The notes: generated by a model not told the origin, from the letters alone. A DNA stretch of 64,000 nucleotides from Bacteroidota bacterium (GCA_018266795.1 JAFDZV010000036.1:26971-90970); one strand, 5' to 3'; shown: positions 8,798 to 59,831, counted from the first letter of the stretch. Program-made: numbers and translations.

Positions 8798-9118
8798 CCT
8801 CGCCGAACCGATGATGGGCGCGGCGTTGCGATCGCGGCATTGCCGTGCGCCGCTGCGGCAACACCGCCGCCGTTCGGCGTGCGTTGCTCGCAGTACCTGC
8901 AGGTACTTGCGAGAAGCTCAACCTCGACTGCGTCAGGGCATTCCTCCGCGATGGCTGCCCGCGGTCTCGGCAGGCGAGCGGAGCGAAGCCGCGGCCACAT
9001 TCCCCGCGCGCGCATCGTTCCGCCGGGTGAACGATGATGCAGGCCGTGCGGGTTGCCCGCGGGCATCCGCTCCGCTGCAGCTGATAACGAACACCTCCAC
9101 GATAACAGGCCAAGGCTC

Positions 9119-10429
<1,311 letters not shown>

Positions 10430-10684: not shown

Positions 10685-13600
10685 ATGGCTTATTTCAATC
10701 GACATCCGGACTCCGCTCTCTACACCTCGTCGCAGGGATACGGCGGCGGTTACGTAGCGTTCTATCTCTACGGCGACGAGTTCCCGGAGACGCTGACGAT
10801 ACCGGACACGTGGGAGACCCGTGTGGGCTACTATCTCTTCCTGAAGGAGCCGCCTCCGGAGAACGGAATGACGACGTTCGTCGCCGCCGTCAACGGAGCG
10901 CTTTCCGGTTCCGAACCCTGCCATACCAGCTTTGTCTGGTACACCTACAATGGGGCGGATGGATCGCTTGTCGAGATCAAGACGGTGAGTACGAATGCCG
11001 TTCCCGTGGATGACGAGGAAGGGGAGGATCCGGACGAGGACGAGGGGGAGGAGGATTACGAGGACGAGTACACGGTGCTGGTAACGGAGACGGCGCTCTT
11101 CAACTTCGGTGGCTACAAGCTCCCCATCGGCGTGAACATGCGTGTGGTGTACGAGCGCGACGGGGGCAACGACGTCACCGGATTCATCTTCGAATATCCG
11201 GAGGATCCGCAGCCGCGGTATCCGGCGGAGGCAGTTGTCGGGCCGCCCGATCCGCAGCGCAATCTTCACCTGACGTTCAATGGGGATGGCCGAGGATGTT
11301 TCGAGGGGATAGGCTTCATCAGCGATTATTCCGACGATGAGGAAACCGGCTGGTATGTCGGACTGCGATATGTGCTGGCAGTTGGCTGCGGGCTTGTTCC
11401 CCAGTATTACCCGGTGTTCGATTTCGGCGATGAATTGCGTCCGCTGCTCGAGATGCGTTGGGATCCGACAAATCATCTCGATCGCAACCGAACATATCTG
11501 GCATTTACCGGAGAATCGATTGCGCTTGTGGAGGACCCTCCGGATTCCGGCGTGTTCCGGCTGGAGGTTCCGGACAGCCCGGAAATCCTTCCCACATTCT
11601 TTCGTACGGTTACCGGTGAGCGCATAGCCTTTATTCCGGTTACCGAGGGAGAAGGCCGGTCCAAGCTTCTGTTCGAGACACGCGATACGGCTCCGATTGA
11701 ATGCGGCGGCTTCTGCTACTATCTGGTGCCTGCCGGCGAGTTCGAACTGCTGCTGCTGGACGAGTGCGGCGACCCGCTGACGCTTGCTTCCCAGAAGGCG
11801 GAAATGCCCGCCCGCTTCATGTGCGGCCTCTCCGGCATCGAGTCGGTGGGTTTCATGCCGCGCAACGAGTGCTTCGATGGCGATCGCATTCTCTTTGTTC
11901 CGCATTGCGATGCCTTCGTGCCGGCGTTTCCGATCAACGGAAACGGGGGCGGCCTTCCGGATCTCGACGCATTGCGTCTGATTGTGGAAGGGGAGTGCAC
12001 TGCGTGGGTTGGATTCATCGGGCCGAACGGCGAGGCGCGCGAGTTCGTGTACTATGCCCAGCCGGAGGATGCTCCACTCTACACGCGGCCCGGTGTTATC
12101 GCGGGAAGTGCACCGCTTCCGCTTATGGAGCCCGTGGCAGCGCTGTTCGAATCGGTATGCAGCCAGACCTGCTTTCCGGTGGCGCCGCCGGCGGGGGCTT
12201 ATCCTTCCGTTGATGCACCGAACCGTCCAACGTTTCTGAGCGCTCTGGAGCATCAGATCATAGGCCCCTGGCGCCGTGATGTGATCCGCAGAACGGCTGC
12301 GACGGCGCCGGATATCATGGAGCCGGCGACGTCCAAGCCAAGCGGCACTGGTGCCACCCCGCAGGGGTTGATCGCCGATGTTGCAGTGGATTCCTGGACG
12401 TCGCTTCTCCTGGCACAGAACCAGCGGACAAGCACTGTTCTGCGATTCTGGTATCCGGATGAGACACTGAAGGCAGCGTTCCAGACAAACCAGTTGTTCC
12501 TGGTTGCATCGCTCGCGAGCCATTTCACGATACCGAATCCGCAGCAGCCAACGGACAGGCGCTTCGAATCGCGGGTGAACATGGCGGATTGGAAGTTCGA
12601 CCTCAAGCTGTCGGGGAACCAGTTTCAGCGTCTCGACAATCCTGCGGCAGATGATTTCCATGATCTCAACAACACGCTGATCTTCAAGTTCTCGCCCGGC
12701 TCCATCTCAAGCCGGCTGCGCGATCCACGTTCGTGGACCAATCCCGGTGACTTCAATCGTACCAACGATGGGCTGCTCGATCTTCTCGCGCAGCGTCTCT
12801 CGGCATATGTCGCATATGCCAGAACACTTGCCTCCAGCAACGATCCCAAGGTCAGGGCCAGATATGCGCCGTTCATCGAGGTGATCGATGACGATGAATG
12901 GACCGGGATAATCGGTGTGAATATCTCGATCGACATGCAGCTGCTTCCATCGCAGTTGAGTGCATTGAGCGCAGGGGTTGATCAGAATTTCTTCGTGGCG
13001 CATCACATCGTGGTGGAGACAAGCTATGTGAAATTCTCCGAGCAGGGACAGGGACTCATGCCCGCCGAATGCTCGCTGTTTGGTCTGGTGGATTACAAGA
13101 GGCGGCAACCGGCTGTGCCACAGGGAGACGGCGGTAACACTGCTCCTGCGGCGGACTTCGATTTCTCCGTGAGCGACTTCCTCGCCGTGTTCCGTAACGG
13201 GTTGCTCAAGGAGTTCTCGTGCGCCGCAGATCTGAAGATCAACAGATTGTTCGGGGACAACATTACCGGGCTGACCGGAAATGATGGCGCAACGAACAAC
13301 GGTATTCGTCTGATCGGCCAGTACGATGCGCTCAGCAACACGCCGTCGTACGTGTTCACTCTGGAGGGTGGCGGGCAGTTCCAGCTTCAGAGCGCCATTC
13401 TCGAGTGGGTGGAGATTCGCAAGGCGCAGTTCTCGGTTCGGGAGGAGGCCGTGCCCAACAGGGGAAAGGACATGTATTGTGCCTTCGTCTTCTGGGGGGT
13501 CATGAAATTCCGCAGCATGGGGCTGACGGGGGACGCCGGGAACCTGGATATTTTCTCCTACGATGCGCTTGCATTCGAAGGAATGGCGCTGCGTATGAAG

Positions 13601-14260
13601 TTCAACATGGATTCGCCATCCGACAGGACATTTACCTTCGACAGCAGAACGATCGCTCTGGATACGGCCCCCGCGGTAACTATTCCGCGCGGCCAGAGCC
13701 TCGCAAAGAAATTCCCGATGCGGCTGCAGACGTTCATGTCATCGGACGCGGGGAAATTGCCCAAGGACCTGGGATACGTGGCTGTGGGTACGCAGTTGGC
13801 AGCGCAGCCGGTTGCGGCGCCATGGTATGGTCTCGACTATACGCTGAACCTCGGCACACTTGGTGAGTTTGCCGCCAATGCCGGGATTACCGTGCAGCTT
13901 GCCGTTACGTGGAGCCCTGGAGGGCCTTCGCAGCCACGCGCCCAGGTGTGGTTGAAGTTCCCGGGTGTCGGCGGCATCGGGAATGATCTGTTCAGCCTGG
14001 AGGGGGTCGTGAAATTTTCTGCGAGCTCGTACAGCCTGAAGGCCTTCACTGACGACGACGATATCGGATACCTGCTGACGCTGAACAGTATGGCGCTCCG
14101 CATTCTCGGCGTTGGAATTCCGTTCGGAGGCGGGCCGAATATCTACGTCTTCGGTCCGCCCAAGAGCCCGGCCCTGCTGAGCCCTACGGCAACGCCGAGC
14201 GACGATGCCCTGGGCTGGTTTGCCGTGTATCCGAAGCCTGCACCTCCGGGCGGCGGCTGA
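10685..14260 (+). CDS. Large hypothetical protein (1,191 aa) with an acidic N-terminal stretch and several Cys clusters.
   Basis: The long ORF has non-shadow composition. The likely start is MAYFNRHPDS, because the upstream in-frame part is an Arg/Pro-rich shadow. It contains the acidic run DDEEGEDPDEDEGEEDYEDEY and Cys-rich segments (ECGGFCYYL, CGDPL, FMCGLSG, NECFDGD, PHCDAF). No recognised catalytic motif. Confidence 0.65.
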   Translation: MAYFNRHPDSALYTSSQGYGGGYVAFYLYGDEFPETLTIPDTWETRVGYYLFLKEPPPENGMTTFVAAVNGALSGSEPCHTSFVWYTYNGADGSLVEIKTVSTNAVPVDDEEGEDPDEDEGEEDYEDEYTVLVTETALFNFGGYKLPIGVNMRVVYERDGGNDVTGFIFEYPEDPQPRYPAEAVVGPPDPQRNLHLTFNGDGRGCFEGIGFISDYSDDEETGWYVGLRYVLAVGCGLVPQYYPVFDFGDELRPLLEMRWDPTNHLDRNRTYLAFTGESIALVEDPPDSGVFRLEVPDSPEILPTFFRTVTGERIAFIPVTEGEGRSKLLFETRDTAPIECGGFCYYLVPAGEFELLLLDECGDPLTLASQKAEMPARFMCGLSGIESVGFMPRNECFDGDRILFVPHCDAFVPAFPINGNGGGLPDLDALRLIVEGECTAWVGFIGPNGEAREFVYYAQPEDAPLYTRPGVIAGSAPLPLMEPVAALFESVCSQTCFPVAPPAGAYPSVDAPNRPTFLSALEHQIIGPWRRDVIRRTAATAPDIMEPATSKPSGTGATPQGLIADVAVDSWTSLLLAQNQRTSTVLRFWYPDETLKAAFQTNQLFLVASLASHFTIPNPQQPTDRRFESRVNMADWKFDLKLSGNQFQRLDNPAADDFHDLNNTLIFKFSPGSISSRLRDPRSWTNPGDFNRTNDGLLDLLAQRLSAYVAYARTLASSNDPKVRARYAPFIEVIDDDEWTGIIGVNISIDMQLLPSQLSALSAGVDQNFFVAHHIVVETSYVKFSEQGQGLMPAECSLFGLVDYKRRQPAVPQGDGGNTAPAADFDFSVSDFLAVFRNGLLKEFSCAADLKINRLFGDNITGLTGNDGATNNGIRLIGQYDALSNTPSYVFTLEGGGQFQLQSAILEWVEIRKAQFSVREEAVPNRGKDMYCAFVFWGVMKFRSMGLTGDAGNLDIFSYDALAFEGMALRMKFNMDSPSDRTFTFDSRTIALDTAPAVTIPRGQSLAKKFPMRLQTFMSSDAGKLPKDLGYVAVGTQLAAQPVAAPWYGLDYTLNLGTLGEFAANAGITVQLAVTWSPGGPSQPRAQVWLKFPGVGGIGNDLFSLEGVVKFSASSYSLKAFTDDDDIGYLLTLNSMALRILGVGIPFGGGPNIYVFGPPKSPALLSPTATPSDDALGWFAVYPKPAPPGGG

Positions 14261-14371
14261 GGTATGCGTGCGATCGTACACCTGGCCAGGCCCGAAATGC
14301 CGGGGACACGGATCCCGCCTGAAGAGAGAACGAACCATCACAACAAACAGTCACGACTCAGGAGAGAAGCC

Positions 14372-15637
14372 ATGCGCAGAATCAATGCGGCGGTATATCT
14401 GCTGCTGTTAACCATAGCGGTCGCAGCGCACGCTGCTCCAATGCAGACCTTGAAGATATACCACATCGGTGTGGGGCAGGGAGATTGCACATTCATCATC
14501 GCGAAAAAGGAACAGTCCAGGAAAGCACCAATCGTTGTCAGTGCGTTGATCGATGTTGGTTCCGGGCCGATCGTGCGAGCGGGGCGCGATCCAGCGTTGC
14601 TTTGGGCTGCCCTCCTGCAGATTATGGGCGAGAATTCAGTGCCGACGATCAATTATCTGATTCTCTCGCACCTGGATGAAGATCACATGGGGGCAGCGGA
14701 GGGATTGCTGTACGTTCTCGAGCGTCCCAATTTCAAGAAATATGCCAAGGGAATGATTGTGGTGGACAGAGGATGGCTGGACCCATCGACGAAGCCGACG
14801 GGGACAATCTATACCGGATTCGAGGGGCGTTTCGGAACCGGAAAGCCGTGGAGGCGGAAGAAGATTGATGTGAAGGAGAATTTGTTCGATGGCTACTTCG
14901 ACAACATGAAAATGTGGTGCGTTGCCGCCAACGGAGTGTCGCTGCAACCGAGAAATGGTGATCCGACAAAATGGAACAGGAGAGTGCTTGTACCGTCTGG
15001 TTCCCTGAATGAGAACGATCGCTGTTACGGTTTTCTGATCGAGTTCGATGGCTTCCGGTACTTCACGGCCGGCGATATGACCGGGTACGACGTCGACAGC
15101 CAGCACAATATCGAGCTTGGGTTCTCCGATTTTCTTACCCAGTGCATGCAGCGTGCGCAGCCCTCGGATGGGAACTGCCATGTCTGCTGCCTGAAGGTAA
15201 ATCACCACGGCAGTATCAACAGCACCAACCCGGATTTCGTGACCGCCACAAAGCCGAGGCTTGCGGTATTCTCGTCGGGTCTTCAGATGTTCAGCAACGG
15301 GCGACTACCACAGCAGGCCGTTGCAACACGGCTTCGGACAAATAACGCAGCGTGCAGTTTCTTCTACACCTACTGTCCCACGAATATTGCCGATCCGTAC
15401 GACGGTACGGTTCAGGACAACGATCCACTTTTCTTTACCGATCAACTGGATCGATGGCAGGATATCGTTGTCTCTGTTTCCCGCCCGAGTGCAAATCTCG
15501 TGGCAAATCGATTATACGGCGATGATATCACGATGAAGGTACAGGCCTGCTATCGTGATCGGTCCACGTTTGCCCGCACATCCAATCTGCGTGATCTGCC
15601 GGACGTTGTCTGCAGCAAGAAACACCCTGCACCGTAA
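14372..15637 (+). CDS. Secreted stand-alone ComEC/Rec2-type metallo-beta-lactamase-fold domain protein (putative nuclease or hydrolase), 421 aa.
   Basis: SD ggagag sits 6 nt upstream of the ATG. The signal peptide is MRRINAAVYLLLLTIAVAAHAAP. ComEC-type MBL motifs are present: KIYHIGVGQGDCTFII, ALIDVGSG, LILSHLDEDHMGAAEGL and KVNHHGSINSTNPDFVTATKPRLAVFSSG. Confidence 0.7.
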   Translation: MRRINAAVYLLLLTIAVAAHAAPMQTLKIYHIGVGQGDCTFIIAKKEQSRKAPIVVSALIDVGSGPIVRAGRDPALLWAALLQIMGENSVPTINYLILSHLDEDHMGAAEGLLYVLERPNFKKYAKGMIVVDRGWLDPSTKPTGTIYTGFEGRFGTGKPWRRKKIDVKENLFDGYFDNMKMWCVAANGVSLQPRNGDPTKWNRRVLVPSGSLNENDRCYGFLIEFDGFRYFTAGDMTGYDVDSQHNIELGFSDFLTQCMQRAQPSDGNCHVCCLKVNHHGSINSTNPDFVTATKPRLAVFSSGLQMFSNGRLPQQAVATRLRTNNAACSFFYTYCPTNIADPYDGTVQDNDPLFFTDQLDRWQDIVVSVSRPSANLVANRLYGDDITMKVQACYRDRSTFARTSNLRDLPDVVCSKKHPAP

Positions 15638-15653
15638 ACAGAGGAAGACTGCC

Positions 15654-18600
15654 ATGAGCCTTCAAACCTTCTACAATTCGCTTGGTGGAGACACCCCGCC
15701 GAATCCGATTGTCTTTGAGCTGGATGAGGATACTGTCGATCCGATCCTGATGCTGCTTACGCTCCTCGAGGTGGATCGGCTGGAGGTCGACATCGTTGGT
15801 GAGGGTGAGCATGATCCGCCATTCGGCATGGTATATACCGCGGACGACCAACCCATGACGATTCGTGGGAGCGCCGAGATGTACGGTGTTGCAACGACCG
15901 TGCTTCTTGTGTTCGTTCAGGACGCCGAGACCGATGCAATCCAGGGAACCCTTACAGCAGCGCTTGATATTACTTCGATTCAGGCGCTCTCGGATTCCGG
16001 TATCGCCGTCATCGCCAACATGGCGGACATCGCTGCGATGCCCGAAGCCGGAGTAGTGCTGGAGGTACTGGGCAATCTTTCGTTGACCACGTCGACGGCC
16101 GATCGCACGTTCGTTGTTCAGTCCGGGATCAAGGACGGAACCACCCGTGTGTTCCAGTCGCCCGCGGTTTCATTTACCGGATTGAACGTACGGGTTGATC
16201 GCGTCATTGGCGATCCGGCCTCGGAAGATGGGCCTGGTGCTCCTGTCACGACGTTGAGTGTAAAGGGGGCGTTCACGGTCTGCGGCCAGGCGCTGGACGT
16301 GACGGTGGATATTCCCGTTGGGGGAGTGGGCTCCACAATGTGGCGCTTCGCATTCACCAGTCCAACCGGATTCGGTCTCGATTCGCTTGTGGATCTGCTC
16401 AATGCATTCGGTGTCGGCGGGCAATTCGCTGCACTTCCCGATCGCATCAGATTGCTCTCCGCATTCCGGTTCATGGGCTTCGAGGTGATCGCCGATCCCT
16501 TCCCGTCGATCGCAAGCATCGAGGTCCTCTTTGCGATCACCGGCGACTGGAACGTCGTAGACACCGTTACGCTGCACAATATTACGTGCTCGCTGCTGGT
16601 CCAGAATCCGTTCAACGGACCATCTGCGCTTCTGAGGGCGAGCGGTGTGTTTACCGTTGGCGGCATTGATCTGGGGACGACACTGCTTATCCCGATAGGT
16701 GGTGGTAACTGGCTCGTGCGGTGTACAACCGACAGCGACAGCATCAATCTGCTCACGATGTCGCAACTGCCGGGGCGCTTCGACCTGAGCTCGCTTCAGG
16801 CACCGATCGGCACACAACAGCAGCTCGATGTTGTTCTGAACGATCTTACGGTTGTCTTCAATCCCATTGCGCGCACAATTGGAGCGATCTCGATCGCAGT
16901 GCGATATGCGGCTACGTGGAATGCCCTTGTCTACAATGGCGAGACGGTACTGAGCGTAACCAATCCTCAGTTCGTGATCGCCATCGATTCACCTCTGTCG
17001 AATAATCGCCGCGTCACGGCAAGCATCTCAGGGTTCGTGGCCTTTTACGATCTGATCAATGCGAGTTTCGAGATGACCAGATCGGGAGGAAGGTGGGCGT
17101 TTGCCGCCGAGACCACCAAACCGATTCGTCTCCAGGCGATCTTCGACAAGTTTTTTCCAACGTATCCGGAGTGGCTGGACGCGATCAAGGGATTTTCAAT
17201 CACCCAGATCGTGTTCAATTATACGACGTCGGGCGGGAGCCAGCCCGGTGTCTTCAATCTGAGTGCCCGCATCGAGGCCAATTGGGATTATGCACTCGGC
17301 GGCCAGACCGGTTCCATTCAACTGACCTCCATCAGCGCATCGGTTGGATCGCAGCCCGATCCTGCTCAGCCTGCGCAGCGGATCTGGACGTTCGCCGTTG
17401 CCGGCACCGTGCGCCTGTACGACACGTTCAACCTGACAGGCTCGTTCCAGTATCGTACAGGCAATGGTCCCGGATCGGGTGCCGAGATCGCCGTCGAGTT
17501 CGATGGCGTGCGTGGTGTCTACAACTCCACCAACAAGCGCATCGACGTCTCACTCGGGAATCGCACCGTCGGCGATCTGGTAAATACGCTCAACCGATTG
17601 GTCAACGGTCCCGCCACGCCGGACTATCAGTTCGAGTCGCCATGGGATCTCGTTGCCGGCATCAGCCTGCAGGGGCTGGTATTCAGCTTCTACTTCGACG
17701 GCAACAGCCAGAAGCGCTGCGGTATCACCTATCGTTTCCCGACGCCCGTCGATCTCGGCTTCATGAAGATTGTCTCGGTCTCGGTGATTGTGACGACCAC
17801 CAAGAAGATTCGCTTCGAGGCCGACGTGATTCCGTTCACGGCAACAACGCCGTCGCCGTTCGGATGGAATCTCGATGATGCGAATGTCCCGAAGCCGCCG
17901 GGCCGCTCGGCACGCATCCTCGATCTCAAGTACCTCGGCATCGGCCAGCGGCTCGAGCTGATGTCGGCGAATGCCACCCGCTCCGTTGACGACGGGATCG
18001 CTGCGATGAAGACCGCGTTCGCGATCCCGTCGGCAACCAGCCATCCGCTTACAGGCATGCAGGCCGGCCTGCGCTACAACCCGCAGATGAACTGGCTTGT
18101 GGGGGCGGACTTCCAGTTGTTCGGGGCGTTGGCGATCGGCTTCATCTTCAACGACAGCAACATAGCCGGTGTGCGCGTTGGCGTGGATGGCGATCGCTTC
18201 CGCTATCTCGGCGGCCTGAAGTTCGAGATCCTCTACAAGAAGGTAACCGAGAGCATCGGCGTGTACCAGATGGAGATCCGCGTGCCGGATTCCATCCGCC
18301 AGATCGAGCTGGGGCAGGTTTCGATCACGCTTCCGATCATCGCCTTCGAACTCTACACGAACGGCAATTTCAAGGTGGACTTCGGATTTCCGAAGGACAA
18401 TGACTTCTCCCGTTCGTTCATGATTCAGGTGTTTCCATTCCTGGGAGCCGGTGGTTTCTACTTTGCGCTGCTGGAGGGGGCAACATCGCCGCGTCTGCCG
18501 GCCAACTACAATCCGAACACCGGTGTGTTCCGTCCCGTGTTGTCGTTCGGCATCGGGCTCAGTCTGGGAGTGGGCAAGAGCATCAACCGCGGCATCTTCT

Positions 18601-21600
18601 CGGCGCAGCTCAGCATCACATTCGAGGGAATTCTGGAAGGGGTGATCGGCTTCTTCAACCCGACGAGCGGGAGCGGAACCGAGATCTACTACTGGCTTCA
18701 GGGCACGCTCGGCGTGGTTGGCCGGATCCAGGGAAGCGTGAGCTTCGCCGTCATTTCCGCAAGCGTCTCGCTGGTTGTGTACGCGCGTATCGGGGCCACA
18801 TTCGAATCATACCAACCACTCGTGCTCTTCTTCGAGGCCGGTGTGGATGTGAACCTTACGGTGCGCATCGGCGTTGGCTGGCTGAGCACCGATGTCAGTT
18901 GCTCCTTCTCCACCAGCATCCGCGAGTCGTTCACGATCCCGGTGCGCGGCAATGGAACGGCGCCGTGGGTTGGCGGCGGCCAGCATGCGTTGGGCCACGG
19001 CGCCGGGCCGCACGGTATGATCGGATCGAGTGCGGTGGCGCCGAAGGAAATGGGGGTTCTCCGCTGGAGAACGATCGACATGGCCGGCACGGGCGACGAA
19101 GTTCTTCTGGAGTTCCGTCCGATGTATACCGTGGCGGAAGGGCCGAACGGCCAGAAGTCCAACTACGTGGCAATGCTGTTTCTGCGCAGTGCATCGCAAT
19201 CGGAACGCGAGAACGACCATCGGACTGTCAACGAGATTCAGGCAACGGACTTTGAGGCGCTTGCAACCGGCATGTTGGTGTGGGCGATCAATGCATCGGT
19301 GAATGCCAACAACCAGACTGCCGTCAATGCGGGCAACATCGAGACCGAACTCCTTAACAAGGACGTCCGGATTGATCACCTGCAGGAAGTGTTCGATTCT
19401 CTGGCACGCCGGGCAGGAGCGGCTGCGAGTTTCGAGACGCAGCAACTGCTGGATTTCCTCCACCTGTATTTCACGATGGTGATCGTCCCATTGCAGCAGA
19501 ACCGGCATTCACCGAATGGTGGCAGCTCCGATGACCGGCCCACGCTGGCAGTGTTCCCAATGCCGCCGGACCTGGAACTGAAGGCGTTCTACGATGACGC
19601 GACCGTGGCCGACATCGACTTCGCCTCCTACAACATGGTACCGGACAGCTATTCCGGCGAGATCGCCAACCACTTCAAGGAAATCGCCATGCAGTTCCAG
19701 ACAGGGCTGGAAGCGAGCGTTGACGCGAATGAAATGCAGGCTGCGCCGGAGTATACGGGCGACGAAGAGTCCATGGCATCCTATGTCTTCGACGACTATT
19801 TCATGCTCCTTGCGCGTGGGGTGGTACATGCGGCCATGGATCTGCTGAAGAATTATTCGATTAAATCTGCCGGGGAGACTCTTGCCGCCCTGGCGACCAC
19901 CTATGGGGTTTCCCCGGGTGAGGTGGGCGTTGCAAATGCGGATCTGGCGATCACCGCACCGGCCACACTGCAGCTTGGCGGTGTGGCGGTAACCACGACG
20001 GCTACCGATACGCTCGCGGCATTGGCCTCGGACAGGGGGTTCCCGAACGACAATGGTTTCCTGGAGAGCCTCGGTCGCCTGAATGCGCTCACACCCGGAC
20101 TCGTGGCAACGGACACGGCGATCACGATCGGCGACGACTCAATCGATGTTGCAGAAAACGAGACGTTGTACTCCATGGCGACGAGGCTCCATGCTTCACC
20201 GGGTGCGGTTGCCGTCACGATTGCATCGCGGCAGGTGCTCAATGCCGATACGAGGCTGCTTCTTCCAACGGTTCCAACCACGTATCTCACCGTTGGGAGC
20301 GAGCCCAATCTGCGCTGGATCGCGTCCAACTACGTTGCAACGCCGGACTTCCAGTTCGAGACGGACTTCGCGCTCGCGAACGCGTTCGTTCCGGGGATCT
20401 TCGTTCCGGGAACCATCTTCACGATGGCGACCGGAGATGCGTACCAATCCATCGCGTCCGACTCGCTTGCAACAATTGCGGCGGCGGTGGGCTTCACCGT
20501 GGAATCGGTGGCGGGAGCCAGCAACGAGCTTTCCGGCATCATCGCTCCCGGAGTTCGCCTTACCATCCCTCCGGTGTCGGTTGCGCTGGAGGGTGCGCCA
20601 ACGTTGCGCCAGGTGCAGACAACCTATGGAGCCGGCATCGCGGCAGTGGCTGCGGCCAACGCCGCAACCCTTGTGCTGGGTGCGGCGGGCGGTTGCATTG
20701 AGCTGCCGAATGTGAAGAAGATCAAGATCGGAACGCTGAGGAAGGAAATGCTGCAGCGCGATCTGTTGATCGATCTTGGCGGCACGGTCTCGCGATTCAT
20801 GGTGCCGGGCCTGCGGCTGCCGCTCCCGACGCAGCAGCAGAATCCCGAGCCCGGCCTGTGGCCGAACTGCGAACCGGATGGATTGTATCGCCTTACCGGC
20901 CAGCAATTCGAGTTGGACAACCCGCTCGGCGGGCAGAACGGACCCGATCTGGATGTTATGCTGGTTGGCGGAGCCAACGCAGGCTGGTATTCGATGCGCG
21001 GGGACGCGGAGAACTACGAGAACCCCGAGAACGACGAGGTGTATGAAAATCCTGTGCGTGTCACGCTCGAGTGGGCTGACCTCGACAAGCTCGATCAGCT
21101 TGCCGCAGAGCAATTGCTGGTTGACGCGTCGCCCTACCGGAAGATCCCGATGTCGCAGACGCAGTTGAAGCGCTTCCCGCTTGGGCGTCCCGTGCAGATT
21201 CAGATGTCCGGTGCGTTTGCCTATGCCGTTGGAACGGCTCCCAACGGCGTGTTGCCGACCATCCTCAACTTCTCCGAGGGAATGCGCCGCGTGCTGGCGG
21301 TGGCCAGGAATCCGGAGCAGCGTTTCGATCTCGCGCTGGAGCGGCCGGACGGATCCGCTGCGGCGCTGAACGTCTACTCCTGGGCTACGGCAATCACCGT
21401 GAAGGTGCGTCGCGTTCGCCTGCCCGATGGTTCCATTGCTGCAATGACCTACGAGCTGGACGGTGCCGACGCCGAGGGGACGCTGACGCTGGAGAAGATC
21501 GTTGCCAGGGGAGGAACGTCCGGCTTCGGGTTCATTCAGGATATACATCTTCTCTTTGCCGGCCAGGGAGTTGGAGCGTTGCAGACCGACGGGCCGAATG

Positions 21601-24600
21601 CAATCAGTGCCTTCATCCTGCAAACCAATCTCTCCACGCTCACCAACCCGCAGGGGTCGAAGAGCATGGTGGCGGCGAAGGACGTACCGGCTGCGGTCGC
21701 AAATGATTTCAAGGACAACCGTGCCGAGATTCTGCGAGTACTGTGGGAGGGAAGTATCGTTCGCTCCGGCGGATACTATCTCTACTATCGGTGCGGTGGT
21801 GCATCGCGAGGGCTGCCGGACAGCGCGTTCAAGGATGACGGTACGGCGGACATCACGCTGTTGATCACCTATGGCTACGGGGCCGGCAATTATGCCTCCA
21901 GCGGGCTGCCGTCGTTCGTGAACCGGGTGGTAGTGGGGGCGGATGTTACCGTGGCTTCCGTGTTCGCAGTCTCGCACGAGCAGTCGATATCGGTAGCGGT
22001 GAACGGCACCACGACGCTCAGCCAGCTGATGGCCTCGTATCACACAAACCTTGCGGATCTGGCCGTGGACCTTGGCGGACAGGGGCTGAGCGTGGAGTCG
22101 ATTCCCGTTCCCGGTGCAGTGTACCAGGTGGCGCACGGCGGCGAGACGCTGGGCGCGGTTGCCAACCGATTCCATCTTGGCATCGATGCCATCAAAAGCG
22201 CGAACACGGATCTCGATGCGGGCCTCACCGCCGACAGCGAGTTGACCGAGTACCTGACCCTCGTGATCCCGCCGTTCACGCATCCGGTAGCTGCCGGGCA
22301 GAACCTTGCAGGCATTGCCGGCACATACAATGTGCCATTGACCGATCTCGTTGCTCCGCTTGCCGGCTCTGCAATCTTCGCTGCCGGACCGAATGTGAAC
22401 ATCCGCAGTCGCCTGGTAACGAAGTCGCCCACGGTGCCGCCGGGACACACCGGATTCCAGCTGTTCCGCGTGCCTCAGGAGACTCCGACAGTGCATGATG
22501 AGCCCACAGCCGCACAACAGTTGGAATCGCTCTACAGCCTGCTTGCATACTGGCTGGTGCAGAACCAGTGGTGCGATGGAAGCATGGAGGGACTGCCGCG
22601 CGGACCGGGGGAGGAACTGGCGGAGTTCACGGATCTTCCGGACGTGGAGGATCGGTGGAAGTACGAACAGGTACTGCCTGCGTACCGGTTTGTTCACAGC
22701 GCACTCCCGGCCGCCAACCCATATCGAGGGGTGGGTACGCTCGTGGAGATCGGCGTGGATTGGCGCGACGTGTTCGGCAATCTCCTGAACTACGTCTTCG
22801 AGGTTGATGGATGTTGGGGATCGAACGTTCTGCCGATCCGCCTGGGCTACACCGACGAAGTAATCGGAATCGGGCGTTGGCCGTCTGTGCGGTCATCCTA
22901 CAGCATGGGCTTCGATGCGAACTCGAATCCGACGAACGACATCGTACTGGAGTTCGATGTTGCGCGCTACCTGGTTACCCCGGAGGGTGAGCAGGCAAGT
23001 CTGGGGGATGTGTACAATATTGCCGGCGCCGACTACGAAGCATACACGCGCATCGCAAATCAGCTTGCCTGTGCCGATGTCACAGCCTGGGGAAGCACCA
23101 CGCTGGGCGGCCCGTCGCAGCCGCTCAGTATTGCCGCAATCCGTGCCTGGGTGGGAAGCATCGTAAGCTTCCTGGATCAGCTGTTCGCGGTGCTTATCGA
23201 CCCGGATGCGCCGCAGCCGCAGATCCCGGACGATCTCACGCTTCCGATCCCTGCCTCGCTTACAAACAACGAGGCGATCTTCCCGTTGATCGTTCGTTTC
23301 GGCATCGAGCGTACCGGGCGTATCGACGATGCATTCCTCGACATGCCCGCCGTGCGCGAGGCTACCGAGGACATCGAACCCGCCGGGCCGATCAAGGACT
23401 TCGCCGCGAACTTCGAGTGCGTCTATGGGGGGGCGAAGCTGGCCGCGGGCCTCTCGCGTCTGGAGGATACGGAGACCGATTCACGCAATCGGCTCTGGGT
23501 GGTGAAGCTGGGGCAGCTCAACGGCAATAATCGCGACCAGGGCCCATCGAATCCGAACAAACGGTTCCAGTATGCCGTCGACGATCAGCAGCAGGTGTTC
23601 TTCGCACCGATTCCGCTTGCTACGTCACCCATCGGATCGGAAGATCTGAACGTCTACAACTACGTTTCCGGACAGGGGCTGGCCGATGCAGTCACCAGGA
23701 AAACCTACAAGGGGGTTGATCTCGATGCCTGGGCCCGGACGTTCCTGAATGCGGTGGACACGATTCTGCTTCCTCAGTATGCAACTCCGGCACATCTGCT
23801 CGATCTTGGAAGCGCTGCTCCGGCGGGCTCGCGCGCGCTCGAGAAGATTATCGCTGCGAAGCGAATGATTGCCGGCGCCATCACGGGAATGGTGCAGGAG
23901 ATTGGAGACACAGGACGGGGAAACCTGGGCGAGGCCAGCGAGTTCTTCAGTCAGCGACTGCTGGTTCGATTGTCGGCAGCGTATGAAACCGATGCGATCG
24001 TTCAGCTGGGAGTAAACGTGGACTCGCCGTATGCCGATGCGGATACCACGTACGTACCGAAGCTGTATGGGCAGACAGTGGGACGGCGGCCGGGAACGGA
24101 GGAGTCGAAGCCGGAGTTCACGCTCTCCACGGCACGTGTTCCACTGGCACGCGAGAGTCAGTACCTGACATTCCTTTTCAGTGCGGAGACGGCGCTGCCC
24201 GAACAGATGTTCGAGGTGGATGTAGAATTCAACGTCAGCGCATTGGAATACCAGATTGCCGACGTGCCGGGCATTACCGATTATCGCGCGTCATCGTGGC
24301 TCACATTCATCATTCCACCCGACTCGCCAACCGTGCGGGCTGCTGTTCCGGTACCGATCCGGAAGTTCCCGCCCACGCCGACGTTGATCGAGCAGGAATT
24401 GATCACCACGGTTGACGCCACCGATGATGAGGAGGAATACAATGCGCTTACGCTTGCCGAGACGCGTGAATGGCAGTATGCATATACATACGAGCGGGTG
24501 CAGGGGACGCACGATGTAATCTTCACCTCCCCTCGATTCAATGTGGCCAACAGCGAACTGCCTCACGGCATCGGTGCGGAGGATCCCGATCTGTTCCAGG

Positions 24601-25769
24601 CGCTGGCGATGTTCGATCACGCCTGGGATGCCATCCAGCAGGATCTGTTCGATCCGTTGGTCAAGATCAGGCAGGGCGTTGCCGGTGCCGACGACGGCAA
24701 GGCCGATGCCGCTCTCACAGCGTTTGCCGCAATTGCATCCAAGGTTGCATGCGCATGGGGACGCTGGTTGTGCGATCGCGATTTCTACCGGCCGTCGTAC
24801 GGGACGGAAGATCCATACCTGTACGTGGTAAGCGAGGATGATCGCGACATCCTAGTCGAGGCGCAGGTGGTGCGGCGGTTCACGATAGCCGTCAGAGTCT
24901 GCCGCGGCCAGGCGGACGTTCCTCTACCGCGTATAGATGTCGATGGTTGGGAAACCCACCCGGTGGACAACGTATTGCCGGGATGGCGGATATTCTGGTA
25001 TTCAGCAGTAGGAGAGAACGGAACGGAGATCCTGGACAAGGATACTGCTGCGGAGGACCGCCAGCGAACGGTGGTATTCGAAACACTGGATATCCTGAAC
25101 AAGCAGAATGCATGGGGAGGGGTGTACACAACCCGGAACGAGAACATCTTCAACGATGCCGCCTGTAATCCGACTGCTTCCATTCATACGAATCGGGAGT
25201 TCATCTATCGTACTCCGATGGTTCGCTTCGGAAATCTGCTGACCCCACTCATCGAATATGACGGGACGATCGATGTCGGGAGTCTGAGTCCCGCGGAGCC
25301 GAGCCCGAAGGGAATCGGGAGCCACATCGGCACGTTGTTCACGAAGTTCTTCGAAGGGATTCAGAATCCGGCGCCGAACGAGACCCGAAGCATTCGCGTG
25401 GATTGCAGGTATGAGTATCGTCTGGGGAATCCCTATGGGATCGTGAGTCCGATGATCGTTACGCTGCCGATTGCTATGTCGCCGCCGTTCGATTTCCGGA
25501 TACATGCGGACGAGGACGCGACATGCCCGCAGCAGGCTGCCACTTTCACCTGTGCGCTTGCCGATGCGATCACCGCCTGGTACTACGCGCGGTTGCCCGA
25601 GCGGGATCAGGGGCGGTTCATTTTCGACATCGCAGTCTATTCAAGCCTGGGGAATACAGGCAAGCTGCCGATCTACCACGTGAAGTCCTTGCGGTTGAAT
25701 CTGAGCGACGTGAACGATCTGACCGAGGATGATTGCGACGACGACGGTGGCGACGGCACGGGAGGATGA
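15654..25769 (+). CDS. Giant protein, paralog B (3,371 aa), with at least 7 tandem LysM-like modules and the same conserved core as paralog A; no N-terminal signal peptide.
   Basis: The ATG is 16 nt after the stop of the MBL gene, with gaggaag just upstream. Core segment LKFEILYKKVTESIGVYQMEIRVPD...FPFLGAGGFYFALLEGAT is at nt ~18220-18960. LysM-like modules lie at ~19860-20720 and ~22000-22420 (e.g. VYQVAHGGETLGAVANRFHLGIDAIKSAN, HPVAAGQNLAGIAGTYNV, SAGETLAALATTYGVSPGEV). The C-terminal block NAWGGVYTTRNENIF...RTPMVRFGNLLTPLIEYD is shared. The tail is acidic/Gly (EDDCDDDGGDGTGG). Confidence 0.85.
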   Translation: MSLQTFYNSLGGDTPPNPIVFELDEDTVDPILMLLTLLEVDRLEVDIVGEGEHDPPFGMVYTADDQPMTIRGSAEMYGVATTVLLVFVQDAETDAIQGTLTAALDITSIQALSDSGIAVIANMADIAAMPEAGVVLEVLGNLSLTTSTADRTFVVQSGIKDGTTRVFQSPAVSFTGLNVRVDRVIGDPASEDGPGAPVTTLSVKGAFTVCGQALDVTVDIPVGGVGSTMWRFAFTSPTGFGLDSLVDLLNAFGVGGQFAALPDRIRLLSAFRFMGFEVIADPFPSIASIEVLFAITGDWNVVDTVTLHNITCSLLVQNPFNGPSALLRASGVFTVGGIDLGTTLLIPIGGGNWLVRCTTDSDSINLLTMSQLPGRFDLSSLQAPIGTQQQLDVVLNDLTVVFNPIARTIGAISIAVRYAATWNALVYNGETVLSVTNPQFVIAIDSPLSNNRRVTASISGFVAFYDLINASFEMTRSGGRWAFAAETTKPIRLQAIFDKFFPTYPEWLDAIKGFSITQIVFNYTTSGGSQPGVFNLSARIEANWDYALGGQTGSIQLTSISASVGSQPDPAQPAQRIWTFAVAGTVRLYDTFNLTGSFQYRTGNGPGSGAEIAVEFDGVRGVYNSTNKRIDVSLGNRTVGDLVNTLNRLVNGPATPDYQFESPWDLVAGISLQGLVFSFYFDGNSQKRCGITYRFPTPVDLGFMKIVSVSVIVTTTKKIRFEADVIPFTATTPSPFGWNLDDANVPKPPGRSARILDLKYLGIGQRLELMSANATRSVDDGIAAMKTAFAIPSATSHPLTGMQAGLRYNPQMNWLVGADFQLFGALAIGFIFNDSNIAGVRVGVDGDRFRYLGGLKFEILYKKVTESIGVYQMEIRVPDSIRQIELGQVSITLPIIAFELYTNGNFKVDFGFPKDNDFSRSFMIQVFPFLGAGGFYFALLEGATSPRLPANYNPNTGVFRPVLSFGIGLSLGVGKSINRGIFSAQLSITFEGILEGVIGFFNPTSGSGTEIYYWLQGTLGVVGRIQGSVSFAVISASVSLVVYARIGATFESYQPLVLFFEAGVDVNLTVRIGVGWLSTDVSCSFSTSIRESFTIPVRGNGTAPWVGGGQHALGHGAGPHGMIGSSAVAPKEMGVLRWRTIDMAGTGDEVLLEFRPMYTVAEGPNGQKSNYVAMLFLRSASQSERENDHRTVNEIQATDFEALATGMLVWAINASVNANNQTAVNAGNIETELLNKDVRIDHLQEVFDSLARRAGAAASFETQQLLDFLHLYFTMVIVPLQQNRHSPNGGSSDDRPTLAVFPMPPDLELKAFYDDATVADIDFASYNMVPDSYSGEIANHFKEIAMQFQTGLEASVDANEMQAAPEYTGDEESMASYVFDDYFMLLARGVVHAAMDLLKNYSIKSAGETLAALATTYGVSPGEVGVANADLAITAPATLQLGGVAVTTTATDTLAALASDRGFPNDNGFLESLGRLNALTPGLVATDTAITIGDDSIDVAENETLYSMATRLHASPGAVAVTIASRQVLNADTRLLLPTVPTTYLTVGSEPNLRWIASNYVATPDFQFETDFALANAFVPGIFVPGTIFTMATGDAYQSIASDSLATIAAAVGFTVESVAGASNELSGIIAPGVRLTIPPVSVALEGAPTLRQVQTTYGAGIAAVAAANAATLVLGAAGGCIELPNVKKIKIGTLRKEMLQRDLLIDLGGTVSRFMVPGLRLPLPTQQQNPEPGLWPNCEPDGLYRLTGQQFELDNPLGGQNGPDLDVMLVGGANAGWYSMRGDAENYENPENDEVYENPVRVTLEWADLDKLDQLAAEQLLVDASPYRKIPMSQTQLKRFPLGRPVQIQMSGAFAYAVGTAPNGVLPTILNFSEGMRRVLAVARNPEQRFDLALERPDGSAAALNVYSWATAITVKVRRVRLPDGSIAAMTYELDGADAEGTLTLEKIVARGGTSGFGFIQDIHLLFAGQGVGALQTDGPNAISAFILQTNLSTLTNPQGSKSMVAAKDVPAAVANDFKDNRAEILRVLWEGSIVRSGGYYLYYRCGGASRGLPDSAFKDDGTADITLLITYGYGAGNYASSGLPSFVNRVVVGADVTVASVFAVSHEQSISVAVNGTTTLSQLMASYHTNLADLAVDLGGQGLSVESIPVPGAVYQVAHGGETLGAVANRFHLGIDAIKSANTDLDAGLTADSELTEYLTLVIPPFTHPVAAGQNLAGIAGTYNVPLTDLVAPLAGSAIFAAGPNVNIRSRLVTKSPTVPPGHTGFQLFRVPQETPTVHDEPTAAQQLESLYSLLAYWLVQNQWCDGSMEGLPRGPGEELAEFTDLPDVEDRWKYEQVLPAYRFVHSALPAANPYRGVGTLVEIGVDWRDVFGNLLNYVFEVDGCWGSNVLPIRLGYTDEVIGIGRWPSVRSSYSMGFDANSNPTNDIVLEFDVARYLVTPEGEQASLGDVYNIAGADYEAYTRIANQLACADVTAWGSTTLGGPSQPLSIAAIRAWVGSIVSFLDQLFAVLIDPDAPQPQIPDDLTLPIPASLTNNEAIFPLIVRFGIERTGRIDDAFLDMPAVREATEDIEPAGPIKDFAANFECVYGGAKLAAGLSRLEDTETDSRNRLWVVKLGQLNGNNRDQGPSNPNKRFQYAVDDQQQVFFAPIPLATSPIGSEDLNVYNYVSGQGLADAVTRKTYKGVDLDAWARTFLNAVDTILLPQYATPAHLLDLGSAAPAGSRALEKIIAAKRMIAGAITGMVQEIGDTGRGNLGEASEFFSQRLLVRLSAAYETDAIVQLGVNVDSPYADADTTYVPKLYGQTVGRRPGTEESKPEFTLSTARVPLARESQYLTFLFSAETALPEQMFEVDVEFNVSALEYQIADVPGITDYRASSWLTFIIPPDSPTVRAAVPVPIRKFPPTPTLIEQELITTVDATDDEEEYNALTLAETREWQYAYTYERVQGTHDVIFTSPRFNVANSELPHGIGAEDPDLFQALAMFDHAWDAIQQDLFDPLVKIRQGVAGADDGKADAALTAFAAIASKVACAWGRWLCDRDFYRPSYGTEDPYLYVVSEDDRDILVEAQVVRRFTIAVRVCRGQADVPLPRIDVDGWETHPVDNVLPGWRIFWYSAVGENGTEILDKDTAAEDRQRTVVFETLDILNKQNAWGGVYTTRNENIFNDAACNPTASIHTNREFIYRTPMVRFGNLLTPLIEYDGTIDVGSLSPAEPSPKGIGSHIGTLFTKFFEGIQNPAPNETRSIRVDCRYEYRLGNPYGIVSPMIVTLPIAMSPPFDFRIHADEDATCPQQAATFTCALADAITAWYYARLPERDQGRFIFDIAVYSSLGNTGKLPIYHVKSLRLNLSDVNDLTEDDCDDDGGDGTGG

Positions 25770-25885: not shown

Positions 25886-26938
25886 TCACCGCTCCCGAAA
25901 CTCCTGCGGTGCATTCGGCACCAGTGCGGGATCGGCGAGGTCCAACTCCAGCAACGTCTTTCCGTTGTTCGCCTCCACGCCGACGGTGAATGCGCCGAGT
26001 GATTGGAACGTGTACGCGAGCGTGCGATCCGGGCCAAGCTCCGCCGTCACCACATCCGGTTTGAACGTCGGATGCAGATGAATGGCAACCTGGTTCGACA
26101 TCACCTGCGCTTCGTCCGATGCGGTGACCTCCAGCGTGACGCGGAAGAAGGTCCTGCTGGAATCCACCGGCGTTACCGTTGCGCCGATCCTCCAGCCGTC
26201 GCGATCGGCGAGGCCGCCGAATCTCCCCTTTGCGGGATCGGACGCCATCTCCTCGTTATCCGCGTGGCCGGCGACTCCGCGAATGCCCGGAGCCGGCCCC
26301 TTGAACGTCTGCGCTGCTGCGGGCCGTGCTGCCGCGGCTGCCGTTCGCCAGATGACGCTCGCAAACTTCACCTGATTCTCCTTCGCCTGTTCGATGTCCG
26401 CCTGCACAGTCTCGCCAACCTTCTGTGCCTCCACGGATGCAGCGGTAGCCGACTGCGATATCTCCATCGCCGCCTCCGATCGCAGCTGAGCCGCGGCGGA
26501 TTTCCGCATCGCCCGCTCCGAATTTCGTTTGGCGTCGGCCGCCAGTGCGATCACCTGCCTGGAGACCGAGCCGATGAAGGCGCGCGAGGAGATGGCCGCC
26601 GCAAGACAGAAGCCGCCGTAGATGAAGAACTGCCATCCGGAGAGCTGCGCCGGGTTCGATGTGTCCACCAGTTTGCTGTCCGCGATCTTCAGGAAGAGCG
26701 GCACCAGAAACGCGGCGCCGACACCACGTACCACCGGCTGCCACACCGATGTGTCGGTAGGCACCGGTTGAGCCGGGACCGGCGTGGAGGCCGGATCGGC
26801 GGCCGATGCTCCGGTTGTGTCCGGTTCCGGCCGGCGCAGCGCGGAACGTCCATCCGGAAAGCCGAAGTAGCTGACCAGCCCTCCGAATATCCCGGCGAGA
26901 ACCGTGAGCGTGATGAGAATCGGGATCTGGGTTTCCAT
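25886..26938 (-). CDS. Membrane-anchored hypothetical protein (350 aa) with 2 predicted TM helices, an Ala/Gln-rich coiled-coil-like linker and a C-terminal globular domain.
   Basis: The N-terminus METQIPILITLTVLAGIFGGLVSYFGF and the segment WQFFIYGGFCLAAAISSRAF are hydrophobic. The AAAQLRSEAAMEISQSATAASVEAQKVGETVQADIEQAKENQVKF region is coiled-coil-like. The C-terminal domain GRFGGLADRDGWRIGATVTPVDSSRTFFRVTLEVTASDEAQVMSNQVAIHLHPTF has no match I can name. Confidence 0.6.
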   Translation of the reverse strand: METQIPILITLTVLAGIFGGLVSYFGFPDGRSALRRPEPDTTGASAADPASTPVPAQPVPTDTSVWQPVVRGVGAAFLVPLFLKIADSKLVDTSNPAQLSGWQFFIYGGFCLAAAISSRAFIGSVSRQVIALAADAKRNSERAMRKSAAAQLRSEAAMEISQSATAASVEAQKVGETVQADIEQAKENQVKFASVIWRTAAAAARPAAAQTFKGPAPGIRGVAGHADNEEMASDPAKGRFGGLADRDGWRIGATVTPVDSSRTFFRVTLEVTASDEAQVMSNQVAIHLHPTFKPDVVTAELGPDRTLAYTFQSLGAFTVGVEANNGKTLLELDLADPALVPNAPQEFRER

Positions 26939-31800: not shown

Positions 31801-32323
31801 CGTCCGCGGCGGCGCCTGCATGCGTGCGCCTGTGCGTGATGGTGATATCCACGCGCTCCGATGTATTGGCCGTGCTCGTGATCATGCATTCGTGTATCGG
31901 ATACTGCCACCGGATGTCGGCTTCGCGCCGCACGATCCGCTCCCGATAGAGTGTGCAGAGCGTATTGCCGGAGGCATCCTGCGAGTAGTCGTACAGGAGC
32001 ATGTAGACATCCTTGTGGAGCCTCTCCTTCAATTCGAGCAGCCGCTCCAGATCCGATGGGAGAATCACGTCGTCTGCGTCCAGCCAGATGATGTAGGGGG
32101 AGGTTGCCTTGCTGAACGAATAGTTGCGTGCGGCTCCGAAGTCATCGATCCAGTCGAAATGTTCGATCACCGCGCCGAACCCGCGCGCGATTGCAATGGT
32201 GTTGTCCGTGGAACCCGTATCGACGATGATGATCTCGTCAACCAGAGGCCTGACCGAGGAGAGGCAGCGCGCAAGCACCTCCTCCTCGTTCTTCACGATC
32301 ATGCACAAGCTGATGGCTGGCAT
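28808..32323 (-). CDS. Multidomain glycosyltransferase, 1,171 aa: GT2 - TPR - class I SAM methyltransferase - GT2 - GT4.
   Basis: Start trimmed to MPAISLCMIVKNEE. The first GT2 domain reads ISLCMIVKNEEEVLARCLSSVRPLVDEIIIVDTGSTDNT...WLDADD. TPR-like helices follow (ICYYLGKEYLDAGREEP...). The methyltransferase has LNLGSGNKRYLD...LKPGGTVLL. The second GT2 has IVIPTCANPEYLQACVRSI...ILNDD. The C-terminal GT4 fold has GIGGSETAAARMAEELARLGYRVVVF and continues to the end. Confidence 0.8.
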   Translation of the reverse strand: MPAISLCMIVKNEEEVLARCLSSVRPLVDEIIIVDTGSTDNTIAIARGFGAVIEHFDWIDDFGAARNYSFSKATSPYIIWLDADDVILPSDLERLLELKERLHKDVYMLLYDYSQDASGNTLCTLYRERIVRREADIRWQYPIHECMITSTANTSERVDITITHRRTHAGAAADENRNLRILEKAVAGDRYRNDARICYYLGKEYLDAGREEPAIAEFRRFLAMPDGWIEDRIGAQQRIAKGYYNLSRKDPLRATEYRSQARAEAKLARAMDSRWAEPHFILGSIAFDEEDYEEAIFWYELCLRPAPDVLSPLDSYTYGVGPLVQICISHDRLGDHITANEYNEHALAMMPNDRNLLANRDYFAAVLERQRTGQRTQPTGIVKLNLGSGNKRYLDYRNCDKYPGREVDETFSLDDIPYDDETVDAIHSEHALEHLYHESARTALREWYRVLKPGGTVLLKLPDLGDCCRAFLAAATQEERDWYRYTIYGIQRSLGDEPMEGQIHHTGFTREELVREMEQIGFVVDASGNYDGYSTPSVEVQAHKPVPDTSADIVIPTCANPEYLQACVRSIIACTEHPHRIIVVNSGGPRQTAGLPESVLVIESERRLNFSEAVNVGIRAGSSPFIVILNDDVIVSHGWLEAMIAEAEGNVGIVNPLSNCDKGWLHDYHMEVDGMELLPGMNRLFEGTLQLRWVDEPGIAPERIYTAHMERDRVYRRDWVAFYCTLVRRDVVRMTGLLDEEFVNGSEDLDYCLRARKMGFECAVTERSFVFHFGGTSRAARELEMPEAFRAEDRSNMERAALKHDRPLLVIHTGSSYEPWTSATIGSAGIGGSETAAARMAEELARLGYRVVVFSSCDGMEGRYNSVEYLDYARFERFIDAHVIDVMIVSRYMFVLQNPLRVKKLYLWVHDIYAMGTELGERDLVPFFYERLDGIFCLSPWHIRNFCSIHGVPADKLILTGNGIDPERFERHVERRTNRFIYSSSPDRGLDTLLGIFPLIRELLPDAELHVFYGFDNWDKAIEMSQDAGARALRDLIHRRMSQPGVFYHGRVGQEQLAEEYLRSDVWFYPTSFTETYCITALEAQMAGTLCVCTDLAGLSSTIADRGILLGGDARSAEFVAEAVRRLLVLLRDPEAKEAMRARARAWAVEQTWYNRAREWEAIFRTPGIVL

Positions 32324-57190: not shown

Positions 57191-57398
57191 ACCGCGGAAC
57201 CACGCGGGCGGCATCGAGTCATAAACGATACAGCGACGCCGTGACGAATTGCCTCCGGAAATTTTCAATCGGTAACGCATTCCGGCGGGAAATGCACAGG
57301 CTGCTTCGTTCCATGCCCCTTTCGTATGTTTGTGGCCATGGTATTTCGGAGCCCGGCATTCTTCGCCTCAATCCTTCACATCTCGTTGCGTCCCCTCA

Positions 57399-59821: not shown

Positions 59822-59831
59822 TATCGTTCTG

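Follow-up and report, generated by a model that had tools for sequence, protein, structure and literature searches.

A constrained, predicted all-beta core as the probable signature domain of a widespread family of giant bacterial proteins

Introduction

Outer-membrane beta-barrels, LysM cell-wall-binding proteins and inverse autotransporters, the Tc (ABC) toxins and the uncharacterised domain DUF6603 are the described systems closest to the subject of this work, a pair of giant paralogous proteins, A and B, that share a strongly conserved core of 239 residues. Both are encoded on the same strand of a bacterial chromosome segment of 64,000 nucleotides and ~62% GC (Bacteroidota bacterium, GCA_018266795.1, JAFDZV010000036.1:26971-90970), hereafter the window, from whose first nucleotide all coordinates are counted. 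Among the genomes of the species collection, a Ca. Kapaibacterium sp. metagenome-assembled genome (MAG) is the nearest, and its locus L007 holds an orthologue of B, termed B'. Our analysis indicates that the core is very probably the most strongly constrained domain, and the defining one, of a large family of uncharacterised giant proteins, and that A and B are old paralogues of one lineage.

With outer-membrane beta-barrels (porins, TonB-dependent receptors, Omp85/TpsB) the core shares 5-10% sequence identity, and Foldseek matches to them are not significant (E ≥0.016, TM score ≤0.38). Unlike these barrels, the core is a domain inside a protein of 3000-4500 residues, no signal peptide was detected in any of 12 giants (0/12), and the giant family also occurs in the monoderm Cellulomonas, Lysinibacillus and Paenibacillus. 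The absence of a signal peptide together with this monoderm occurrence led us to reject an identity as outer-membrane barrel, and the resemblance is generic rather than one of homology. LysM cell-wall-binding proteins and inverse autotransporters (intimin/invasin) have in common with the giants their LysM repeats and a beta-sheet module, and one member of the giant family also possesses an Ig-like domain (He_PIG). However, the core is not a LysM domain, the modules follow another order, the signal peptide is lacking and, of the two giants considered here, B carries a single LysM motif and A none.

The likeness to Tc toxins is one of analogy only. It extends to a very large signal-less protein with surface-binding modules, to partners of ~1000 residues, to a hypervariable element and to a spread across phyla and on plasmids. 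In contrast to the Tc toxins, no TcA, TcB, TcC, SpvB or RHS domain was found in any protein of the operon (Pfam, NCBIfam), no fold match was obtained, and the variable part of the giants is N-terminal and includes separate genes for proteins of the metallo-beta-lactamase (MBL) fold or of the endonuclease/exonuclease/phosphatase (EEP) type. DUF6603 (PF20248), of ~500 residues, is similar in length to a stand-alone protein of 508 residues that corresponds to the core-containing segment of B. Sub-threshold matches to it fall collinearly on the region of long strands in the core (residues 373-435 of protein P0001 against profile positions 347-406), with a best E-value of 5e-4 reached in two of 26 members and a best score of 14.4 bits (E 0.014) over 60 of the 502 profile positions, the gathering cut-off being 27. 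Neither the window's own sequences nor 12 full-length giants gave a DUF6603 hit, and we found no relevant literature on this domain.

A single peak of identity between the two giants

The two giants and their cores are located in the window as follows.

9-8741, + strand: giant paralogue A, at least 2910 residues, no Pfam hit
15654-25769, + strand: giant paralogue B, 3371 residues from the ATG at 15654, the longest open reading frame (ORF) running from 15555
1494-2213, + strand: conserved core of A, aligned to 18222-18938 of B
18222-18938, + strand: conserved core of B, predicted all-beta, 239 codons, FEILYKK...RESFTI

The 5' end of A is probably cut by the window edge, its true start lying upstream, because its reading frame is open to nucleotide 3, at the very edge, and because the alignment of the two proteins begins only around residue 360 of B. 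From there A and B align end to end at ~39-40% identity by BLASTP, and at 42% overall in a global alignment. When identity was followed in a sliding window along A and B it was far from uniform and displayed one outstanding peak, the core, where 74.1% of 239 aligned residues are identical with one gap (global protein alignment), as compared to 39.2% over the 2548 aligned columns outside it. The next-best non-overlapping window of 239 residues reaches 51% and is found in B around window nucleotide 25038, near the C-terminus.

An earlier note, drawn from this DNA alone, had described such a core at nucleotides 18220-18960, shared by the two giants between diverged flanks, and this description is borne out along with its coordinates and the peptide and DNA strings it quoted. 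Its figures need adjustment. The 75-80% identity given for the core is slightly high, since the exact interval yields 72.1% over 247 residues, and the 25-35% given for the flanks fits the N-terminal flank (31% over 445 residues) but not the remainder, where identity amounts to 38-44% on the C-terminal side of the core and to 38-55%, with local peaks, over the C-terminal two thirds. The Gly-rich and hydrophobic composition that the note attributed to the core is real: Gly, Phe, Ile and Ser make up 12.4%, 9.2%, 8.4% and 10% of its residues, against 8.9%, 4.9%, 5.7% and 6.3% of the whole protein. A common known domain, which would have explained the conservation trivially, did not turn up in the core when A, B and their neighbours were scanned with Pfam, NCBIfam, PHROGs and PADLOC.

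Rates of change were estimated by the Nei-Gojobori method in windows of 60 codons. Between A and B, nonsynonymous divergence (dN) is 0.11-0.24 in the core versus 0.4-1.0 in the flanks, and the proportion of synonymous differences (pS) is 0.42-0.60 in the core versus 0.55-0.75 in the flanks; synonymous divergence (dS) of the core is near saturation and its pS close to saturation for this codon bias. As dN is far lower in the core and pS only modestly so, the core differs from the flanks mainly in nonsynonymous change. Between the orthologues B and B' the core is 95-99% identical, with a dN/dS ratio (omega) of 0.01-0.05 at a dS of 0.44-0.8. We further added to the alignment of A and B 10 giants drawn from Acidobacteriota, Myxococcota, Bacteroidota, Actinomycetota and metagenomes. 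Among themselves these 10 proteins are 55-68% identical in the core windows and 20-45% elsewhere, with the peak at the same position, and the core is the highest peak of conservation across the family. Because the three independent comparisons, of paralogues, of orthologues and of 10 giants, agree, the core is the slowest-evolving part of the protein. Its identity is caused by purifying selection on amino-acid changes in every lineage examined and not by exchange of DNA between A and B, in support of the strong functional constraint that the earlier note had put forward as one of two explanations.

A widespread family of giants in a conserved operon

The distribution of the family was established with an exhaustive profile search, using clusters at 50% identity and a segment that contains the core, which we call the unit.

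17631-18971, + strand: unit of B, counterpart of the stand-alone 508-residue Bryobacteraceae protein; the core is its C-terminal half

This profile recovered at least 1366 representative clusters, 1067 of them with E<1e-30. Most of the matching proteins are 3500-4500 residues long and carry the unit at about residues 500-1200; giants matched there gave E-values of about 1e-170 to 1e-205, and the size range of the family as a whole is ~2000-4500 residues. A word-index search with the core retrieved only fragments and some stand-alone proteins of ~510 residues, 37-54% identical, none of them longer than 537 residues. Members that bear a name are annotated as "LysM domain-containing" or as hypothetical proteins and come from Acidobacteriota, Sorangium, Bacteroidota and Cellulomonas. 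The family is also present in species genomes of Flavobacterium, Mucilaginibacter, Chitinophaga, Chloroflexia, Symbiobacteriaceae, Acidimicrobiales, Bradyrhizobium, Aquimonas and Pseudophaeobacter, and on large plasmids of Tistrella, Nostoc, Burkholderia, Paenibacillus, Azospirillum, Embleya, Lysinibacillus and Mycetohabitans. The phyla concerned are Acidobacteriota, Bacteroidota, Myxococcota, Actinomycetota, Chloroflexota, Bacillota, Cyanobacteria (the Nostoc plasmid) and Pseudomonadota. By tblastn the core found nothing in 50,697 phage genomes. IMG/VR held no relative either. One Chloroflexia MAG (DATEOC01, loci L016 and L021) contains two complete copies of the operon described below on different contigs; the presence of multiple giant paralogues in one genome is therefore not unique to the window.

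The modular character of the giants is apparent from their natural variants. The 508-residue Bryobacteraceae protein (locus L001) matches residues 660-1106 of B in BLASTP, and its gene is situated between a gene for 146 residues and a gene for a LysM protein of 1907 residues that matches the C-terminal half of B. The giant of the Lysinibacillus fusiformis plasmid pG5.M11b_1, 2102 residues long and part of a minimal system with proteins of 284 and 1100 residues, starts ~67 residues before the core, and that of Mycetohabitans rhizoxinica pBRH02 starts ~150 residues before it. From these giants with short N-termini it follows that the core and the downstream ~2000 residues are the indispensable part, with the core at its front.

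LysM repeats were detected in 11 of the 12 aligned giants. In B, a single LysM motif is the sole Pfam match.

22140-22217, + strand: LysM motif (PF01476), residues 2163-2188 of B, 28.7 bits against a cut-off of 20.9

The motif sits within an insertion of ~170 residues specific to B (window 22000-22400, residues ~2085-2260) where A shows gaps. No LysM match above the gathering score was found within the core; the only one of B is far from it, and A has none. Ten or more LysM repeats are typical of family members, so that A and B are both LysM-poor versions.

Three genes separate A from B in the window, and the last of them belongs to a cassette that extends into B.

9053-10429, + strand: collagen-like (Gly-X-Y) protein, Pfam Collagen at 2e-31, PHROGs tail-fibre families at up to 7e-55
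10685-14260, + strand: conserved partner of ~1100-1260 residues, whose ORF can start at 10481 (1191-1259 residues)
14264-15637, + strand: MBL-fold, ComEC-like gene (variable slot), NCBIfam ComEC_Rec2 at 9e-12, probable signal peptide
14257-17165, + strand: hypervariable cassette, comprising the MBL gene and the first ~504 codons of B, replaced in L007

The resemblance of the collagen-like protein to tail fibres runs through its Gly-X-Y repeats. The ~1260-residue partner is 100% identical to database protein P0174, which starts at 10685 and is annotated "MAG: ... Bacteroidetes bacterium"; the ~1100-residue partner has no match in Pfam, NCBIfam, PHROGs, PADLOC or the PDB. The MBL protein, with the hydrophobic N-terminus MRRINAAVYLLLLTIAVAAHAA, additionally gave weak matches to Lactamase_B, Avs1a, LmuA and RTasMBL.

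A similar gene order recurs across phyla, namely a protein of ~400-750 residues, one of ~1100-1260 residues, zero to three MBL-fold or EEP genes or small ORFs, the giant, and sometimes a collagen-like gene. Loci from at least seven phyla have a homologue of the ~1100-residue partner directly upstream of the giant, and collagen-like genes flank the giant in Mucilaginibacter loci as well. Pfam scans of ten homologues of the ~400-residue partner returned one fn3 domain, the conserved partners being otherwise devoid of a known domain, and hhalign found no relationship between the unit and the ~1100-residue partner. A component of a phage tail or of an extracellular contractile injection system (eCIS) was considered and rejected, as PHROGs gave no hit for A, B or the ~1100-residue partner, the phage genomes and IMG/VR contained no relative, and Foldseek against BFVD gave no match at an E-value of 1e-3 or better. 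The PADLOC models of anti-phage defence likewise gave no hit for these three proteins, and only the weak LmuA and RTasMBL matches for the MBL gene.

The slot between the ~1100-residue partner and the giant is occupied in other phyla by zero to three tandem MBL-fold (ComEC-like) or EEP genes (L010 3628-7494, L016 5565-7415, L029 4375-7191, L014 6384-7430 and L018 6004-7263, among others). Some of the slot proteins have a signal peptide and others none, and in some other loci the slot holds small ORFs resembling detached N-terminal pieces of the giant.

Comparison with the syntenic locus L007 allowed us to delimit the cassette. Nucleotides 14257-17165 have no blastn match there, whereas the DNA on either side is 85-87% identical. 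At the protein level B and B' are 23-43% identical in their N-termini and 80-99% downstream, and the MBL protein is only 43% identical to its counterpart. The cassette looks like a specificity or effector module swapped by recombination. In L007, whose contig extends another 6.2 kb upstream, no A-like coding sequence is found directly upstream of the collagen-like gene (positions 1-843), and paralogue A may be absent from the genome of the closest relative or located elsewhere in it.

Predicted fold of the core and possible roles of the giants

The core was modelled with AlphaFold2 from 26 sequences and a query of 316 residues. The model is all-beta (predicted local distance difference test score, pLDDT, 84.6; predicted template modelling score, pTM, 0.75), and we predict with high confidence that the core is an all-beta domain. 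The first ~125 residues of the query form a compact N-terminal part of short strands bearing the invariant motifs YTNGNFxVDxGFP, DFSRSF and PFxGxGGFYF, followed by six strands of 18-23 residues that build three very long beta-hairpins. Each long strand is two-faced, with a mean Kyte-Doolittle hydropathy of +1.8 to +3.8 on one face versus -0.5 to -1.7 on the other, made of small or polar residues. Gly, Pro, Phe and Thr account for most of the invariant residues, joined by a few Asp, Arg, Ser and Glu, and these types point to a structural role over an obviously catalytic one.

Foldseek comparison of the core returned no significant match in the PDB and none at an E-value of 1e-3 or better in BFVD. 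PDB sequence searches with the core, all of B, the ~1100-residue partner and two profiles (A3, A4) found nothing, and we found no relevant literature on giant LysM proteins. In B neither a signal peptide nor a transmembrane helix was detected.

We propose that the curved amphipathic sheet would act as a structural assembly element of a large complex, packing onto further copies or other portions of the giant or forming a barrel-like wall in an oligomer. Such a complex would be built from the giant and its conserved partners of ~1100 and ~400 residues, and its lineage-specific specificity or payload would come from the variable N-terminus, from the adjacent MBL/EEP nuclease-like genes and from the collagen-like fibre. 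A role in conflict or toxin delivery is one possibility.

The earlier note had suggested that the core might be a membrane-inserting or oligomerisation module. This suggestion would fit the predicted amphipathic sheet of long hairpins. Neither a transmembrane helix nor a signal peptide was detected, and no pore-forming fold was matched significantly. In its most explicit form it would make the core a membrane-inserting pore module, the hairpins of several subunits together forming a transmembrane beta-barrel and the giant serving as a translocator for its nuclease-like neighbours. Consistent with such a pore are the six amphipathic strands in three predicted hairpins, the lack of a Sec signal in the giants, the presence in the operon of variable MBL/EEP genes and a hypervariable cassette in the style of conflict systems, the spread of the family on plasmids and across phyla, and low-ranking Foldseek matches that include the pore forms of perforin-2, pleurotolysin, C9, gasdermin and leukocidin. 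However, the pore-toxin matches are not significant (E ≥0.03, probability ≤0.38, TM score ≤0.14), an ordinary sheet with one buried face would equally give amphipathic strands, some slot proteins possess signal peptides of their own, at odds with the loading of a cytoplasmic cargo, and no conserved neighbour of the operon is an immunity gene, a lysis cassette or a secretion system. We consider a pore module unlikely. By the same Foldseek values, and with no Pfam hit, the core shows no significant similarity in fold or sequence to the pore-forming domain of the known beta-pore-forming toxins (MACPF/CDC, gasdermin, leukocidin, aerolysin).

A more far-reaching proposal would see in the core the barrel-forming, membrane-inserting module of an undescribed, Sec-less, wall-binding machine, horizontally spread over at least seven phyla and delivering the swapping MBL/EEP proteins into other cells; we regard it as rather improbable. 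Such a machine would comprise the giant and its ~1100- and ~400-residue partners and would be a functional analogue of the Tc toxins, though unrelated to them.

Constraint or gene conversion in the core

Our reading of the core as a constrained domain has to be weighed against the possibility that gene conversion or another recombination between the tandem paralogues homogenised it, in which case its identity would reflect a younger coalescence of the DNA and not selection. We hold this to be very unlikely. The layout would favour such an event, A and B being 7 kb apart on the same strand, and the near-identical stretches of DNA to which the earlier note drew attention do exist, the first 120 nucleotides of the core being ~86% identical. 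They are local, however: the whole core is only 75.6% identical between A and B at the DNA level, its longest exact run is 23 nucleotides, and at the pS reported above its synonymous divergence is not that of a gene-conversion tract. Nor are the paralogues closer to one another than to the orthologue, as would be seen in such a tract. The core of A is 74.3% identical in DNA to that of B', which belongs to another species, and at the sites where B and B' differ A sides with B in 34 cases and with B' in 24, a split that is not significant. As A does not stand nearer to B than to B', any exchange must predate the separation of B and B', at a dS of ~0.5-0.8. Moreover, the identity peak is also observed among unrelated genomes, where conversion is impossible, and the ratio of the protein distance between A and B to that among the others is not lower in the core (0.44-0.91) than along the rest of the protein (~0.33-1.8). 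We conclude that recent gene conversion, the second explanation of the earlier note, is excluded as the cause of the core identity.

In the core a faint synonymous signal nevertheless persists between A and B and speaks for some conversion. Where their residues are identical, the codons agree as well in 64% of cases as compared to 54% expected (z 3.5-3.8) from a permutation that keeps the core-specific codon usage, versus 45% observed and 43% expected in the rest of the gene. The corresponding residual r is 0.21 in the core and 0.04 elsewhere. By way of calibration, 471 pairs of distant homologues average 0.015 (standard deviation 0.06), with a maximum of 0.21. Between A and B' the residual of the core is only 0.10 (z 1.7), which counts against conversion. 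A conversion long ago or a lowered synonymous rate is conceivable but not needed.

Several points weigh against our interpretation of the core as the constrained, family-defining domain. The small excess of shared codons remains, and old homogenisation or a lower synonymous rate of the core could contribute beside constraint. The core model is that of an isolated fragment and not of the full protein, and the model of the unit (pLDDT 78) reaches a pTM of only 0.58. In addition, no catalytic or binding motif could be recognised in the core and no homologue with a known role was found. An assembly artefact, in which the metagenome-assembled contig would contain a chimera or a duplication, has a negligible chance of explaining the similarity, for although the window stems from a MAG, as the annotation of P0174 indicates, the copies disagree at 25% of nucleotides in the core and at ~60% of residues outside it, unlike collapsed or duplicated reads, the ORFs of 8.7 and 10.1 kb are both uninterrupted and have a coding-type GC content at third codon positions, and an independent assembly of a related organism carries the same B locus.

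That one domain of two old paralogues changes far more slowly than the remainder is, as a pattern, ordinary. What it points to here is the signature domain of a large family and its operon, both widespread and uncharacterised, for whose components neither a Pfam family beyond the LysM repeats nor a solved relative nor a trace in the literature libraries searched was found, and the family is always located in the same small operon. The family matches no described kind, which does not in itself demonstrate a new mechanism. The core is the best handle on it, being its most conserved part, with a confident in silico fold, a stand-alone form of 508 residues and an N-terminal position in a minimal giant of 2102 residues. 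These stand-alone and minimal versions make structural and genetic work feasible.

Other genes in the window

Directly downstream of B and on the opposite strand, nucleotides 25886-26938 (- strand) encode a prokaryotic YEATS domain (PF20305) fused to a YLATT module with three transmembrane segments (PF20303), an architecture described from conflict or signalling systems. Adjacent genes for a MoxR-type AAA+ ATPase (bpMoxR, PF20030) and a vWA-domain protein are found at 43616-46455 (- strand), and the Pfam entry for bpMoxR names "MoxR-vWA-beta-propeller ternary systems", which matches this pair.

Much of the remaining window appears to be filled with genes of polysaccharide biosynthesis, as suggested by a multidomain protein of 1206 residues (28808-32428, - strand) that combines a family 2 glycosyltransferase (GT2), a TPR region, a methyltransferase, a second GT2 and a GT4/GT1 domain, by a UDP-glucose dehydrogenase gene (57330-58718) and by a polysaccharide export (SLBB) gene (59787-61601). 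Finally, the ORF at 39878-40906 (+ strand) encodes release factor 2 (PCRF and RF-1 domains) with its first ~25 codons missing in frame, and a CTTTGAC motif is present just upstream, at 39841-39847, which we take to be the classical programmed +1 frameshift site of prfB.

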